NCBI GenBank assembly: GCA_012838395.1
Contig: DUPI01000008.1
Coordinates: 1 to 32,817 of the forward strand
Reading direction: 5' to 3'
Length of the DNA: 32,817 bases
From: Mollicutes bacterium
Lineage (GTDB): Bacteria > Bacillota_I > Bacilli_A > RF39 > UBA660
Positions 24,463 through 29,441 of this stretch are shown here, piece by piece. A model generated the notes under the pieces. It made no database searches and was not told the DNA's origin. It saw nothing but the letters and a program-made list of their open reading frames with translations. The position numbers and the translations under genes were made by a program. Positions within the stretch are counted from its first letter, which is position 1; the number at the start of each line of letters is the position of its first letter.

Positions 24463-24539
24463 GGGTGATTAGCTCAGTTGGTTAGAGCACCTGCCTTACA
24501 AGCAGGGGGTCGTAGGTTCGAGTCCTACATCGCCCACCA
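24463..24539 (+). tRNA. tRNA-Val (anticodon TAC)
   Basis: Cloverleaf by eye. Acceptor GGGTGAT/ATCGCCC, anticodon loop CT-TAC-AA, T-arm GGTTCGAGTCC, encoded CCA. Confidence 0.9.
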
Positions 24540-24540
24540 T

Positions 24541-24617
<77 letters not shown>

Positions 24618-24620
24618 TGT

Positions 24621-24704
24621 GGAGGGATAGCGAAGTGGTCAAACGCGGCAGACTGTAAATCTGTTCCTTCGGGTTCGATGGTTCAAATCCATCTCTCTCC
24701 ACCA
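24621..24704 (+). tRNA. tRNA-Tyr (anticodon GTA)
   Basis: Acceptor GGAGGGA/TCTCTCC, loop CT-GTA-AA, long variable arm (class II), encoded CCA. Confidence 0.9.
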
Positions 24705-24719
24705 TTAAAATTGTTACCT

Positions 24720-24794
24720 TGCCTCGTAGCCAAGTGGTAAGGCACCACACTTTGACTGTGGCATGCGCTAGTTCGAATCTAGCCGAGGCAGCCA
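24720..24794 (+). tRNA. tRNA-Gln (anticodon TTG)
   Basis: U1:A72 acceptor TGCCTCG/CGAGGCA, anticodon stem CCACA/TGTGG with loop CT-TTG-AC, encoded CCA. Confidence 0.9.
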
Positions 24795-24801
24795 TTTTTA
24801 T

Positions 24802-24877
24802 GTCCCGTTAGCTCAGTCGGTAGAGCATTTGACTTTTAATCAAAGGGTCACAAGTTCGATTCTTGTACGGGACACCA
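24802..24877 (+). tRNA. tRNA-Lys (anticodon TTT)
   Basis: Acceptor GTCCCGT/ACGGGAC, anticodon stem TTTGA/TCAAA with loop CT-TTT-AA, encoded CCA. Confidence 0.9.
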
Positions 24878-24885
24878 TCTTATTT

Positions 24886-24974
24886 GCCTGAGTGGCGGAA
24901 TAGGTAGACGCACAGGACTTAAAATCCTGCGAGATTCAACTCTCGTGCCGGTTCAATTCCGGCCTTAGGCACCA
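24886..24974 (+). tRNA. tRNA-Leu (anticodon TAA)
   Basis: Acceptor GCCTGAG/CTTAGGC, anticodon stem CAGGA/TCCTG with loop CT-TAA-AA, long variable arm, encoded CCA. Confidence 0.9.
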
Positions 24975-25002
24975 TTTAAATATTTGCTAAATTTAAAATT
25001 AC

Positions 25003-25093
25003 GGAGAAATACCCAAGTCTGGTTGAAGGGACCGGTCTTGAAAACCGGGAGGTCGGAAACGGCGCGGGGGTTCGAATCCCTCTTTCTCCGCCA
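25003..25093 (+). tRNA. tRNA-Ser (anticodon TGA)
   Basis: Acceptor GGAGAAA/TTTCTCC, anticodon stem CCGGT/ACCGG with loop CT-TGA-AA, long variable arm, encoded CCA. Confidence 0.9.
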
Positions 25094-25110
25094 TTTAAAA
25101 TTTAAAACAT

Positions 25111-25187
<77 letters not shown>

Positions 25188-25188
25188 T

Positions 25189-25264
25189 GGTCCCGTGGTG
25201 TAGCGGTTAACATGTCTGCCTGTCACGCAGAAGATCGCGAGTTCGATTCTCGTCGGGACCGCCA
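25189..25264 (+). tRNA. tRNA-Asp (anticodon GTC)
   Basis: Acceptor GGTCCCG/CGGGACC, loop CT-GTC-AC, encoded CCA. Confidence 0.9.
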
Positions 25265-25267
25265 TGT

Positions 25268-25343
<76 letters not shown>

Positions 25344-25369
25344 TTTTATTTTATTATGAAGATGAATCC

Positions 25370-25446
25370 GCGCCCGTAGATCAATTGGATAGATCGTTTG
25401 ACTACGGATCAAAAGGTTATGGGTTCGACTCCTATCGGGCGCGCCA
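25370..25446 (+). tRNA. tRNA-Arg (anticodon ACG; the substrate class of TadA)
   Basis: Acceptor GCGCCCG/CGGGCGC, anticodon stem TTTGA/TCAAA with loop CT-ACG-GA, encoded CCA. Confidence 0.9.
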
Positions 25447-25449
25447 TAC

Positions 25450-25526
25450 CGGGAAATAGCACAACTTGGTAGTGCACTTGGTTTGGGACCAAGGGGTTGC
25501 AGGTTCAAATCCTGTTTTCCCGACCA
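25450..25526 (+). tRNA. tRNA-Pro (anticodon TGG)
   Basis: Acceptor CGGGAAA/TTTCCCG, anticodon stem CTTGG/CCAAG with loop TT-TGG-GA, encoded CCA. Confidence 0.9.
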
Positions 25527-25531
25527 TTTAT

Positions 25532-25608
25532 GGGGAATTAGCTCAGTTGGCTAGAGCACCTGCCTTGCACGCAGGGGGTCAAGGGTTCGAGTCCCTTATT
25601 CTCCACCA
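25532..25608 (+). tRNA. tRNA-Ala (anticodon TGC)
   Basis: Acceptor GGGGAAT/ATTCTCC with the G3:U70 alanine identity pair, loop CT-TGC-AC, encoded CCA. Confidence 0.9.
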
Positions 25609-26169: not shown

Positions 26170-26871
26170 ATGATTAATTTTATTTTGTGTGATGATAATA
26201 AAGAAATAGTTGATAAGGTTAGCCAAATTATAGATGAAGAAATGATGAAAAACAAAAATGAATATAAAAAGAATGTTTTTAATGATTACGATGCTAAATT
26301 TATAAAATTAGTGAAATCAAAATTACCTTGCAAAATATATATTTTAGATATAGAAACTCCGACTCATTCTGGAATAGATATAGCTCGTATGATTAGGGAA
26401 CATGATATGGAAAGTGTTATAATTTTTTTGACATCACACGACGAACTGGGTTATATAGTTTTGAAAAACGAATTTTTATTTTTATCTTTTATAAATAAGT
26501 ATGATGATTATCAAAACAGTTTGAAAAAATCAATTCGTAAGGCTTTGGAGATTATTGGTAAAAAACGAATCATTAGATTTGAAGATCGAGGTGCGATATA
26601 TACAATACCTATTAATGATATTTTATATATTACTCGTGATAATGTTGAGAGAAAGGTTGTTATAACTACTGATTACTCTAAATATAAGGTTAATAAAACT
26701 TTAATTGAAATGTTAGACTTGTTAGGTGATGTTTTTAAACAATCACATCGCTCGTGTATAGTGAACACTAATAGAGTTGCGGTTGTTAATGTGCCAAAGA
26801 AAAAAATAGTATTTGATAACGGTGTTGAAATCGATTGGTTAAGCTCTAAATACAAAAATGAGGTAATTTAA
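26170..26871 (+). CDS. agrA: LytTR-family response regulator (AgrA-like)
   Basis: Receiver domain with ILCDDN acidic pocket and the phospho-acceptor context YILDIETP. C-terminal LytTR domain (IPINDILYITRDNVERKVVITTD...FKQSHRSCIVNTNRV). AGGGTGA RBS. Confidence 0.85.
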   Translation: MINFILCDDNKEIVDKVSQIIDEEMMKNKNEYKKNVFNDYDAKFIKLVKSKLPCKIYILDIETPTHSGIDIARMIREHDMESVIIFLTSHDELGYIVLKNEFLFLSFINKYDDYQNSLKKSIRKALEIIGKKRIIRFEDRGAIYTIPINDILYITRDNVERKVVITTDYSKYKVNKTLIEMLDLLGDVFKQSHRSCIVNTNRVAVVNVPKKKIVFDNGVEIDWLSSKYKNEVI

Positions 26872-26873
26872 AA

Positions 26874-28157
26874 GTGATATTTTTTATAAATAGTTTTATT
26901 TTGTCAATTGCTTGTTTTTATGTTAGTGGTAGGTTTTTGAAATTATCAATTAATTATAAGAGAGCTAAGTATTGGCTAATTATTATTCTGAATTCAGTTC
27001 TTATAATTGCTTCGTTTATTTGTACTACTCATTTTCTTAAGGTGGTTTTTAATTATGTGGTTTTAGTTATACTTAACAAGATATATTTTGAGCAAAAACT
27101 AATTGATACAATTATGGCCAGCTTTTTTGTTTTTGTACTAATAGCTATCGGGGAAATATTGAGTGCAATAGTTTTAGTTACTTTATTAGGTTTTGATCCA
27201 TTAAAAATGTATGTTGGTCAATTTTGGATAAATCTTTTTGTATCGGTTTTTATGGTAAGTATAATTAATTATAAAAAAACAATTTCATTTTTTTTTATAA
27301 TTTCTGAACGAGGAAAACATAAAATTATAAAAGAAATATTACCGCTAGTGATAATTATTGTTTTTATTTATCCAGCTTACTTTTATTATTTATATTTTGA
27401 AAGTAATCTCTTAAACACAATGGTTTTAAGTATTACGTTGATAGTAATTATTAATGTTTTAGTTATTAGTATATTAAGAGAGAGAAGTTACAGTGCTAAT
27501 TTAAAAACTGAGTATGATGAACTAATTAACAACTTAAATGAATATGAAAAAGTTCTAGAAAAATATAGATTGGCTAATCATGAAAATAAAAATAATTTTA
27601 TTGTTTTAAAAGGCTTATTAAAAGATGATAAAGACAATGTTGTAGAATATATCGATGAAATTATCAATAATAAACAAGTAGATGATGAAGAAGTTCTAAT
27701 TAAAACTAAAAAATTACCTATGGGTGGATTACAAGGGTTAGTATATCAAAAATTACTGGTTATGAAGGAAAAATTAATTGTCTATAATATTGAAATTAGT
27801 CGTGATGTTGACGTAACTTTGTTTAGTGGCTTTGATTTCACATTAATCAAAAATTTCTGTACAATTATTGGGATATTGATTGATAATTCAATTGAAGCTG
27901 TGGAAAACCTTGATAATAAAATGATTGGTATATACATATATAAAGAAAATGATACATTTGTTTTTTCAATTGCTAATACTTTTTTTGGAATAATTGATTT
28001 AGATAAAATAGATAAAATTGGTTATTCTAGCAAAGGTAAAGGTCGTGGATATGGCCTTAATTTAGCAAAAAAAATTGTTGAAAAAGATAAACGAATTGTC
28101 ATTGAACGGGAAATAGTTAGAGATGTATTTAAACAAAAAGTGAAAATAAAAATGTAG
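26874..28157 (+). CDS. agrC: AgrC-like (HPK10 family) membrane histidine kinase
   Basis: About 190 aa of multiple TM helices. H-box-like LANHENKNNFIVLKGLL, N-box ILIDNSIEAV, and G-box SSKGKGRGYGLNL. GTG start 2 nt after the agrA stop, with GAGGT upstream. Confidence 0.8.
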   Translation: MIFFINSFILSIACFYVSGRFLKLSINYKRAKYWLIIILNSVLIIASFICTTHFLKVVFNYVVLVILNKIYFEQKLIDTIMASFFVFVLIAIGEILSAIVLVTLLGFDPLKMYVGQFWINLFVSVFMVSIINYKKTISFFFIISERGKHKIIKEILPLVIIIVFIYPAYFYYLYFESNLLNTMVLSITLIVIINVLVISILRERSYSANLKTEYDELINNLNEYEKVLEKYRLANHENKNNFIVLKGLLKDDKDNVVEYIDEIINNKQVDDEEVLIKTKKLPMGGLQGLVYQKLLVMKEKLIVYNIEISRDVDVTLFSGFDFTLIKNFCTIIGILIDNSIEAVENLDNKMIGIYIYKENDTFVFSIANTFFGIIDLDKIDKIGYSSKGKGRGYGLNLAKKIVEKDKRIVIEREIVRDVFKQKVKIKM

Positions 28158-28176
28158 ATAATCTACATTTTTATTT
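28148..28176. terminator. Bidirectional hairpin between convergent agrC and agrD
   Basis: Palindrome AAAAATGTAG-ATAAT-CTACATTTTT (28148-28172) flanked by A- and T-runs. Contains the agrC TAG stop and abuts the agrD TAA. The stem is AT-rich, with only two G-C pairs. Confidence 0.5.
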
Positions 28177-28293
28177 AATTAAACATTCGGGTGTTTCTGG
28201 TTCATCTAACCAAAAGAACATACAAGCTGTACTGAATCCATTTGCTGCAACAAATCCAATAACGCTTAAAGCAACGGCAACTATTTTGCGCAT
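28171..28293 (-). CDS. agrD: AgrD-like autoinducing peptide precursor (40 aa), absent from the ORF track
   Basis: The reverse complement reads GGAGG-tattag-ATG and translates to MRKIVAVALSVIGFVAANGFSTACMFFWLDEPETPECLIK*. It has a hydrophobic/amphipathic leader and Cys24 followed by four hydrophobic residues (CMFFW). An acidic Pro-containing tail (LDEPETPE) follows, as in known AgrD peptides. The ATG overlaps the agrB stop by 13 nt. Confidence 0.8.
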   Translation of the reverse strand: MRKIVAVALSVIGFVAANGFSTACMFFWLDEPETPECLIK

Positions 28294-28898
28294 CTAATAC
28301 CTCCTTCCCAATATAAGAAATTATTATAAGTTTGCTTAAATAAAGAATAGCAAAACGGAGAAATTAAAAAGGATTGAAAAATCATAGATAAAAGTATAGT
28401 GTTATTTAAAAAATTGTGCTTAGATAAAAATAAAATAAAAGTATATATAATAATAATTAAAGTAGAAAATAATTTATATTTCAAACGTTTTTTTTGGTTA
28501 ATGATTGGTCTTTTTTTAGTATCTGCTGGTGAATATTTTATAAAAGTTATAATTGATATAGCAGAAACTATTATTTTTATAAATAAAGGGGTATTAATAA
28601 ATTGACATACGTAAGTAGCACCAATAAAAATTATTGTAGATGCTATTAAGCAATTAGAACTATTATTGGCATGTAAACCAAAGGAGAAAGCTCTTAAAAG
28701 ATTATAAATTAGAACAAGGATTAATAATTTTTGAAAAATGTTTAAAAATATAGCAATGCTGAATATAACAATTGTTTTAGTGATAGTTATATAGATGCCC
28801 TCAAGTCCGTACCGTATTTTTATTAATTCTGTTTGGGTATAATTTGGAAAAACGCTTTCTATTAAATTTATTGATTTATTTAAAATATAATTTTTCAT
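28281..28898 (-). CDS. agrB: AgrB-like membrane endopeptidase (AIP-processing enzyme)
   Basis: Polytopic membrane protein. The motif RAFSFGLHANNSSNC places His and Cys 7 residues apart, as in S. aureus AgrB HGAHAPSSFWC. YSPADTKKRPI matches the conserved AgrB PADT..(K/N)P segment. The ATG at 28898 (MKNYILNK...) is preferred over the GTG at 28907; the RBS is weak. Confidence 0.8.
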   Translation of the reverse strand: MKNYILNKSINLIESVFPNYTQTELIKIRYGLEGIYITITKTIVIFSIAIFLNIFQKLLILVLIYNLLRAFSFGLHANNSSNCLIASTIIFIGATYVCQFINTPLFIKIIVSAISIITFIKYSPADTKKRPIINQKKRLKYKLFSTLIIIIYTFILFLSKHNFLNNTILLSMIFQSFLISPFCYSLFKQTYNNFLYWEGGIRCAK

Positions 28899-28950
28899 AA
28901 ATACCACAACCTATTGTAATTATATAATAAAAAGGGAGTTAATTATGTTA

Positions 28951-28980
28951 ATTGTTCCGAAAGTATTTTTTATTGTTCGA
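28951..28980. promoter_or_regulatory. Direct repeats with 21-bp phasing upstream of agrB (candidate LytTR/AgrA-like binding site)
   Basis: TTAATTGTTCCGAAA (28948-28962) and TTTATTGTTC-GAAA (28969-28982). The ATTGTTC cores start at 28951 and 28972, i.e. nonamer + 12-nt spacer geometry. They lie about 40-70 nt upstream of a - strand TATAAT (28924..28919) that has no recognisable -35. Confidence 0.4.
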
Positions 28981-29228
28981 AATAGAAAAAAATGTTTTTT
29001 TTTTAATAAAAAGTTATATTTTATACACTGTAAGACAGCTTTTAGCCAAAAAAAGTGTGTTTTTTTTAAAATCTAGTAAAATAATAATTGCAATATTTTC
29101 TGGAAAAAAGTTTAGAAAAGAGGTATAAATTAAATAAATTGTCGGATTTTGACTATCTGATTTCATTGATTATCAGATTAATAACAGGTATATTTAAAGT
29201 GTAAAGAAAGTAGAAGGGAGAGGTGTTT

Positions 29229-29441
29229 GTGAGAGGTAAGGTTAAGTGGTTTAATAATGATAAAGGTTTTGGTTTTATCGAGTATAAAGATGGAGAAGAT
29301 ATCTTTGTTCATTATTCAGCTATTTTATCAGCAGGCTACAAAACTTTAATAGAAGGACAGTATGTTGAGTTTGAATTAGTCCGAACTGATAAAGGATTAC
29401 AGGCTAAAAATGTTATTGAAATAAAAACTGCTCTTGTTTAG
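29229..29441 (+). CDS. csp: Cold-shock protein (CspA family)
   Basis: [15 protein letters not shown] (RNP1) and DIFVHYSAI (RNP2). The GTG at 29229 lies 5 nt after GGGAGAGG and gives MRGKVKWF. The track's GTG at 29223 overlaps the RBS. Confidence 0.9.

Follow-up and report, generated by a model that had tools for sequence, protein, structure and literature searches.

An AgrD-type autoinducing-peptide gene with a probable six-residue ring in a predicted agr module of an uncultured Mollicutes bacterium

Which peptide signal would the agr-type locus of an uncultured Bacilli lineage with a reduced genome produce, and where along its short precursor would that signal be cut out? The question is raised by a 32,817-nucleotide stretch of DNA from a Mollicutes bacterium (contig DUPI01000008.1 of assembly GCA_012838395.1), hereafter the window, by which we mean the whole stretch that was analysed. 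Here, an open reading frame (ORF) of 40 codons on the minus strand (28171..28293) lies between genes for an AgrB-like peptidase and an AgrC-like sensor kinase. An earlier note on this DNA had proposed that the frame encodes an AgrD-like precursor for an autoinducing peptide (AIP) that has the five-residue thiolactone core CMFFW. Our analysis supports the gene and revises the ring. The best explanation as a whole, to which we assign a probability of roughly 70%, is that the ORF serves as agrD in a complete agr-type quorum-sensing module, and that its product is processed along the route proposed below, with a macrocycle of six residues rather than five.

The agrD ORF runs from an ATG at 28293-28291 to a TAA stop at 28173-28171, and its 40-residue product is MRKIVAVALSVIGFVAANGFSTACMFFWLDEPETPECLIK. 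A GGAGG Shine-Dalgarno sequence (28300-28304, minus strand) lies inside the 3′ end of agrB and is separated from the agrD start by the six-nucleotide spacer TATTAG, while the agrB stop codon (TAG, 28283-28281) gives an overlap of 13 nt between the two genes. The earlier note had described the ORF, its ribosome-binding site and the overlap in the same way, and all of these details were confirmed in the sequence. It had also proposed comparing the peptide with AgrD-family profiles. The NCBIfam model TIGR04223 ('AgrD family cyclic lactone autoinducer peptide') recognizes the window peptide with 28.5 bits (E = 1.2e-6) against a cut-off of 19, and also matches 43 of 44 AgrD homologues from the clade. 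Consistently, the peptide has the three-part layout of AgrD, in which a membrane-targeting leader is followed by a Cys-containing core and an acidic, Pro-containing follower, and this layout, likewise noted before, is borne out by an alignment of 71 family members. The description of the gene as unannotated holds for the ORF track on which it was based, since that track lists only frames of at least 60 aa, and does not hold elsewhere. At least 39 contigs in NCBI, NCBI nr, JGI/IMG, ENA and Logan already carry the identical 40-aa peptide, with V11L and E36K as strain variants, and in each of the eight contigs that were inspected, which came mostly from biogas-type metagenomes, agrD is a called gene. 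The window agrD is an ordinary, uncharacterised member of a known family and is not new as a gene.

Because a query of 40 aa was judged too short for a direct search, relatives of AgrD were traced via AgrB. Direct searches with the peptide returned little: a word-indexed homology search found only the peptide itself and one 70%-identical relative, and an exhaustive phmmer search of 1.84 billion representatives gave five matches, of which two are true AgrDs and three are long repetitive proteins. The relatives compared here are the best 80 of at least 570 AgrB-encoding stretches found by a pattern scan of GTDB species genomes; column statistics for AgrD come from the 71 aligned members, the spacing between the ring Cys and the downstream Asp-Glu (D-E) motif from 73 loci, and the promoter scan from 78 upstream regions. 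An AgrD-like ORF directly follows agrB in 73 of the 80 related loci of uncultured Bacilli. The sister species (loci L009-L014), whose precursor is 70% identical, keeps AANGFSTACMFFWLDEP.TPE.LIK while its leader has diverged. Between the window and sister-species agrD genes there are 10-11 synonymous and 10-12 non-synonymous codon differences (11 and 12 with L009), and within codons 16-32 the comparison with L009 yields six synonymous and no non-synonymous changes. This synonymous-only divergence indicates a translated, constrained core, and by these codon comparisons agrD is under purifying selection. The spacing of agrB and agrD in relatives ranges from overlap up to about 90 nt, so that the overlap is not conserved in the clade and the translational coupling read from it is no feature of the family.

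Two loci are irregular in this region. In L008:2825-3551, which is from the same species, agrB is called at 177 aa with a 70-nt gap before agrD, and in L030:4560-4700 the agrD frame ends right after the Cys (…GSQACFT); these oddities may reflect frameshifts, errors of assembly or naturally occurring agr-defective variants.

The position of the AgrB cut within this precursor determines the size of the ring. The predicted core, C24-M-F-F-W-L29 (28207..28224, minus strand), is the hypervariable block between the invariant Cys and the D-E motif. In the window, five residues (MFFWL) separate Cys24 from D30-E31, and the same spacing is found at 70 of 73 loci, with six residues at the other three and four residues at none. 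The four-residue spacing from Cys to D/E-E of a canonical five-membered AIP is absent from the window, a statement that concerns sequence register only and not chemical ring size. Column entropy at positions +1 to +5 after the Cys is 3.11, 2.88, 2.64, 2.36 and 2.43 bits, and then falls to 0.11 for D and 0.00 for E. Since entropy is still high at +5 and drops at D-E, the fifth residue behaves like part of the specificity-determining core and not like part of the recognition follower.

Precursors with mapped cleavage sites point the same way (arrows mark cuts). Staphylococcus aureus AgrD1 is cut at M32↓D33, with D33 and E34 both essential (PMC10196373), and Clostridium thermocellum AgrD is cut at F29↓Y30, with a conserved Pro at position 35, or +6. 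C. acetobutylicum AgrD (CA_C0079) reads ...GKCVLVTLYEPKMPEELLKENIDK (GKCVLVTL↓YEPKMPEELLK), and its AIP, predicted as R6T0 and confirmed by high-resolution mass spectrometry, is a six-membered tail-less macrocycle. In a MAFFT alignment, C24-MFFW-L29↓D30-EPETPECLIK of the window falls column for column on C-VLVT-L↓Y-EPKMPEELLK of C. acetobutylicum, and the window peptide has the Cys-x5 core and [YD]-E-P-x-x-P follower that mark the C. acetobutylicum type. A cut before D30 would also place P35 at +6, as in C. thermocellum. A six-residue, aromatic-rich ring has a precedent in Rc-AIP1 of Ruminiclostridium cellulolyticum (Cys + WFWSY). The Cys-x5-DE spacing, the mapped cuts before the motif and the C. 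acetobutylicum register together make CMFFWL likelier than CMFFW, and on these comparisons we consider the six-residue ring probable. The CMFFW core of the earlier note, with four residues between the Cys and the cut, was an assumption that the family spacing does not share, and the recognition tail given there as LDEPETPE is likelier the follower DEPETPECLIK. The choice decides which peptide to synthesise or to seek by mass spectrometry, as the computed [M+H]+ is m/z 828.357 for cyclo-CMFFWL and 715.273 for cyclo-CMFFW, a difference of one Leu. At the three loci with six residues between Cys and D-E (L066, L089 and L092, e.g. GCVWFWLADEP), this spacing predicts rings of seven residues or a shifted cut, and ring size may vary within the clade.

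The Cys is present in all 71 aligned members. The follower, proposed to be the AgrB recognition segment and to be removed by AgrB, comprises the 11 residues D30-EPETPECLIK40 (28174..28206, minus strand) and has the family consensus DEP[EK]xP[KE]SLIK, with D in 70, E in 71, the first P in 60 and the second P (+6) in 64 of 71 members; the columns after the second Pro are x, x, L/M, I and K. Between these fixed elements, 68 distinct cores occur among 74 loci, which is the usual hypervariability of agr signals. CMFFWL is not among the published AIPs compared. The sister species encodes the identical core, and close relatives have CMFLWL and CMLFWL, each a single residue away, or CVILWL, so the suggestion of a new specificity group is weak. 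The second Cys, C37, had also been singled out; it is Asn in the nearest relatives and a singleton at that family position, and a functional role for it in a disulfide or second ring was rejected for its replacement by Asn. A follower Cys of another kind (DEP[EK]-C-P, at +10 after the ring Cys) is found in 31 of 71 precursors, where Met (26) and Thr (9) also occur; the window has Thr at this position and its unique Cys three residues later. One homologue, MHLFSSILAGFAGLFANATVTGSWIFWWDEPKCPKSLIK (L045:4646-4765, plus strand), carries Ser in place of the ring Cys (S-x5-DEP), unlike all others, and its sequence makes it a candidate lactone, rather than thiolactone, AIP.

On the other side of the core, the leader (residues 1-23; 28225..28293, minus strand) consists of an n-region with R2 and K3, a hydrophobic core from I4 to A17 (the hydrophobic segment as a whole covers residues 4-18) and then S21-T22-A23. 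Across the family, the residue at -3 from the Cys is always S or T, and 67 of 71 members have A or G at -1. The leader looks like a signal peptide, and S-T-A↓C fits the -3/-1 rule of signal peptidase I, which makes this the predicted cleavage site. In C. thermocellum, mass spectrometry bore out a cut that SignalP predicts immediately ahead of the ring residue, and the clostridial AIPs detected by Molloy et al. all lack a tail. Tail-less thiolactones quickly convert, by an S-to-N acyl shift, to a homodetic cyclopeptide; for the Listeria peptide the half-life was 1.3 min. In the processing route that we propose, AgrB would cut L29↓D30 and release the follower DEPETPECLIK, and would then link the L29 carboxyl to the Cys24 thiol to form the six-residue macrocycle C-M-F-F-W-L. 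The signal-peptide-like leader would next be cut off, most likely directly before Cys24, and the resulting tail-less thiolactone would spontaneously rearrange, as is documented for clostridial and listerial AIPs that lack a tail, to a homodetic cyclic hexapeptide. The stable extracellular species may consequently be the lactam cyclo(CMFFWL). We put the mature signal being tail-less at about even odds.

How firmly does this reading stand against the alternatives? The most radical takes the ORF as a frame that occurs by chance between agrB and agrC, this spacer as no more than a bidirectional terminator and the substrate of AgrB as encoded elsewhere. A hairpin does overlap the 3′ end of the ORF (28144..28176, both strands), with a 15-bp AT-rich stem, a 3-nt loop and flanking A/T runs. 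Its folding energy is -13.1 kcal/mol on one strand and -13.6 kcal/mol on the other (z = -6.8 and -6.4, respectively), and no shuffled sequence out of 200 is as good. Since agrD and agrC both have their stop codons inside it, the hairpin plausibly acts as a bidirectional terminator; a consensus scan that required at least three G-C pairs listed no terminator, because the stem of this hairpin has too few of them. The Pfam AgrD model is a further point for a chance frame, as PF05931 gives the peptide 17.8 bits and thus falls under its gathering score of 22.7. This sub-threshold score is a limit of a staphylococcus-centred model and not evidence against AgrD membership. A chance frame would also have to be reconciled with a TIGR04223 score above cut-off, a strong Shine-Dalgarno sequence at the proper distance, a homologous ORF at the equivalent place in 73 of 80 species and a core that has diverged by synonymous changes only. 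These comparative data effectively refute it, leaving it a negligible probability, and the ORF is, judged by its sequence and conservation, almost certainly an AgrD-type precursor.

The processing of that precursor is less secure, and several considerations weigh against the route proposed above beyond the Pfam score. The conversion of AgrD into a secreted, cyclic, AgrC-activating peptide is argued from homology throughout. Characterised AIPs are mostly five-membered, W28 is acceptable as a C-terminal ring residue, and the reference point for the AgrB cut could in principle be the Cys and not the D-E motif. If AgrB cut at W28↓L29, the product would be the five-residue thiolactone CMFFW, possibly with an exocyclic tail from ...NGFSTA, and LDEPETPE... 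would be the recognition tail. Such a product would have its Cys at i-4 from the C-terminus as in the canonical AIP; Trp is the commonest +4 residue in the family (29 of 71) and is also the last residue of CVGIW, the AIP of L. plantarum. However, this cut would turn the hypervariable +5 residue (2.43 bits) into P1′ and D-E into P2′-P3′ and would shift the Pro to +7, whereas the precursors mapped in S. aureus, C. acetobutylicum and C. thermocellum are cut before D/Y-E with the Pro at +6, and the four-residue spacing that would suit a five-membered ring occurs in no locus of the clade. We therefore regard CMFFW as unlikely and retain CMFFWL. A six-residue ring could still keep a short N-terminal tail (A-, TA- or STA-CMFFWL) and persist as a stable thiolactone, as in staphylococci, where MroQ or SpsB trims the AIP to a tail of 2-4 residues. 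The computed [M+H]+ of these three tailed forms is m/z 899.394, 1000.442 and 1087.474, respectively. An exocyclic tail, which may be present here, would stabilise the thiolactone, and the conserved G-[ST]-x-A before the Cys would also fit a conserved tail. The clostridial AIPs of Molloy et al., the C. thermocellum cut right before the ring residue and the agreement of S-T-A↓C with the signal peptidase I rule, which concerns a predicted site, speak for a ring without a tail, and we hold the tailed form to be a serious option at somewhat less than even odds.

A six-residue AgrD product would need a peptidase, a sensor and a regulator, and the neighbouring genes are of the expected kinds. agrB (28281..28898, minus strand) encodes 205 aa from an ATG at 28898 and matches PF04647 (1.3e-31, 109.9 bits). 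Its product has six hydrophobic segments, and its residues R69, G74, H76 and C83, invariant in 25 homologues, equal R70, G75, H77 and C84 of S. aureus AgrB, which are required for peptidase activity (PMC10196373). AgrB is thus predicted to be a membrane Cys-endopeptidase with an intact catalytic set that would cleave and cyclise AgrD. Searches of PDB sequences, with either AgrB or the AgrD profile as query, gave no relevant match. Convergent with agrD lies the gene for an AgrC-like sensor histidine kinase (26874..28157, plus strand; 427 aa), which has six hydrophobic segments within residues 1-201 and a HATPase_c_5 (GHKL) domain (3.6e-12). It is preceded by the gene for an AgrA-like response regulator (26170..26871, plus strand) with LytTR (2e-13) and Response_reg (6e-8) domains. 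The two proteins accordingly combine the polytopic, HATPase_c_5-bearing sensor and the receiver-LytTR regulator that characterise an AgrC/AgrA pair. The staphylococcal AgrC model matches the kinase only weakly, and scores with the staphylococcal equivalog models fall well short of the cut-offs, which indicates that kinase and regulator are members of these families and not orthologues of the S. aureus proteins. In most assemblies the kinase is 427 aa long, starting from the GTG at 26874, and its cluster also contains a 366-aa NCBI version; the deposited annotation may use a later start that drops the first transmembrane segments. The convergent agrC-agrA arrangement recurs in all 66 related loci with enough flanking sequence. 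By gene content, the module, in the order csp ← → agrB-agrD → ← agrC-agrA, appears to be a complete agr-type system.

The intergenic region upstream of agrB suggests how this system might be regulated, and what it might regulate. LytTR-type repeat pairs were found by a scored scan and compared with shuffled sequences. One pair of direct repeats, TTTCGAACA-N12-TTCGGAACA (28953..28982, minus strand), is the proposed AgrA site of the agrBD promoter. It matches TTYNRRACA-N12-TTYNRRACA at 16 of 16 positions and is the sole perfect match in the window, where 0.28 matches are expected at up to one mismatch. A TATAAT hexamer, the proposed -10 element of agrBD, follows 28 nt after the proximal repeat (28919..28924, minus strand), and orthologous agrB promoters retain the repeats and an invariant TATAAT block, with -10 offsets that cluster at 27-30 nt. 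The repeats and their place upstream of a -10 element agree with a LytTR-activated promoter, a type defined by two imperfect 9-bp direct repeats 12 bp apart and a weak -35, and make this a putative site of AgrA binding. A second pair, TTTTATACA-N12-TTTTAGCCA (29019..29048, plus strand), points away from agrB and towards csp, a cold-shock-domain gene transcribed divergently from agrB (29223..29441, plus strand; PF00313 reported for orthologues). Downstream of it, again 28 nt after the proximal repeat, a conserved -10 element (TAGTAAAAT; 29077..29082, plus strand), invariant in alignment A2, marks a proposed divergent promoter. Each pair sits 28-29 nt upstream of a -10 box. Across loci, TAnAAT, usually within TAGTAAAAT, occurs 28-31 nt beyond the second pair in 32 of 40 loci that have this pair, and the geometry on the agrB side is alike. 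The agrB-oriented pair occurs in 20 of 78 upstream regions (shuffle mean 2.3, maximum 8), always at -75 to -100, and the oppositely oriented pair in 34 of 78 (shuffle mean 2.5, maximum 7), always at -150 to -180.

This arrangement suggests that AgrA drives both agrBD and csp. AgrC would sense the peptide, and phosphorylated AgrA would bind the 9-bp direct repeats upstream of agrB in positive feedback; AgrA would probably also bind the second, oppositely oriented pair serving a promoter into csp. Two observations count against this part of the reading. The pairs reach threshold in only 20 of 78 loci in the forward and 34 of 78 in the reverse orientation, and the reverse pair of the window is weak (14 of 16), with pairs of such quality occurring elsewhere in the window by chance. 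The second pair of the window carries weight because its position is conserved across loci, and in 69 of 76 loci csp itself is the divergent neighbour, no more than 700 bp from agrB and at a median intergenic distance of 315 bp. We tentatively propose csp as a candidate direct target of AgrA, on the evidence of these sequence patterns. No LytTR pair was found upstream of agrA, which indicates that agrAC is probably expressed independently of AgrA. A search of the agr-csp region against Rfam at E ≤ 1 identified no RNA family, and we found no link between csp and agr in the literature. Within the presumed 5′ untranslated region of csp (29130-29190, plus strand), a block that reads ...ATAATCAAT.AAAT....GTCAAATTCCGACAT... 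on the agrB strand is near-invariant in eight species; it has no Rfam match and may be a csp leader element.

Among known systems, those with six-membered rings in C. acetobutylicum and its relatives come closest to the way in which the window locus, judged by its sequence, works. C. acetobutylicum (CA_C0079; AIP R6T0 = cyclo-CVLVTL) has the same Cys-x5-[Y/D]-E-P-x-x-P-x-x-L-[IL]-K layout and, like the window, separate transcription units for agrBD and agrCA. However, the window leader is short (23 residues) and signal-peptide-like whereas that of C. acetobutylicum is long and charged, agrA-agrC is convergent with agrBD, and the host belongs to uncultured Bacilli with a reduced genome and not to Clostridium. 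Moreover, no LanM-like effector gene of the CA_C0082 type found in the C. acetobutylicum subgroup, and no large ORF, adjoins the window cluster. The missing LanM-like neighbour, the other leader and the other gene order indicate that the window is not a member of the clostridial six-ring subgroup. With S. aureus, the window shares the AgrB catalytic residues, D-E right after the scissile bond, the Pro at +6 and a LytTR regulator with paired 9-bp repeats, including two oppositely oriented pairs in one intergenic region; S. aureus AgrA binds paired direct repeats upstream of the divergent promoters P2 and P3. In contrast to the six-membered ring predicted for the window, the S. aureus ring is five-membered and bears an exocyclic tail, and S. 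aureus has a single agrBDCA operon with P3 leading to RNAIII, whereas in the window agrAC is convergent and csp stands at the place of RNAIII. The AIPs of Listeria monocytogenes, C. perfringens, C. thermocellum and R. cellulolyticum (cyclo-CWFWSY) have hydrophobic or aromatic cores, as in the window. All four are tail-less, with a cut right before the ring residue and a spontaneous S-to-N shift, and the same is proposed for the window; the rings of the first three have five residues, while Rc-AIP1 has six, like our prediction. Published work has already mined microbiome genomes for predicted AIPs and synthesised them on a large scale (PMC11953309), and we found no paper in the literature on agr in these uncultured Bacilli lineages.

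The rest of the window is housekeeping in content (dnaX, holB, mfd, metG, tilS, ftsH, pgpA, tRNAs, csp, hpf and secA), with a GC content of 27.7%. The agr cluster is flanked on one side by an array of 13 tRNA genes and an S1-domain gene and on the other by csp, hpf and secA. The tRNA array (24463-25608, plus strand) comprises Val, Thr, Tyr, Gln, Lys, Leu, Ser, Met, Asp, Phe, Arg, Pro and Ala genes, and about 560 bp without a convincing ORF lie between it and agrA. AgrB homologues come from metagenome-assembled genomes labelled Bacilli, Mollicutes or Tenericutes, from guts and digesters, and some of these are circular genomes of 1.2-1.36 Mb. NCBI taxonomy places the named relatives no more precisely than in 'Bacillota incertae sedis'. 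Nine loci (L014, L017, L020, L023, L030, L032, L061, L073 and L093) are titled 'uncultured Muribaculaceae' or 'Bacteroidaceae' despite a low-GC, Bacilli-type agr locus, and these titles look like wrong taxonomic labels.

For agrD itself little changes, as it is a routine, already deposited member that the NCBI family model recognizes. The main correction brought by our analysis is the register of the ring; of its by-products, the conserved module of divergent csp and agr promoters is the most interesting. The correction matters for anyone who would make the signal, as a design based on the textbook ring of five members would yield an analogue that is inactive or even inhibits, comparable to the 6-R peptide in C. 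perfringens. More broadly, agr is retained almost universally in a large uncultured Bacilli lineage of guts and biogas reactors with genomes of 1.2-1.4 Mb, and the conserved architecture, together with csp as a candidate target, provides a concrete, testable starting point for studying how these never-cultured organisms behave socially. It is interesting to speculate, at less than even odds, that an order-level clade of reduced-genome Bacilli carries a fixed csp/agrBD/agrCA module in which all signals are tail-less rings of six, or occasionally seven, residues, and in which AgrA drives two divergent promoters, with the csp RNA chaperone replacing RNAIII as the direct effector. If true, the output logic would be new for agr, and no natural reservoir of six-membered AIPs would be larger.

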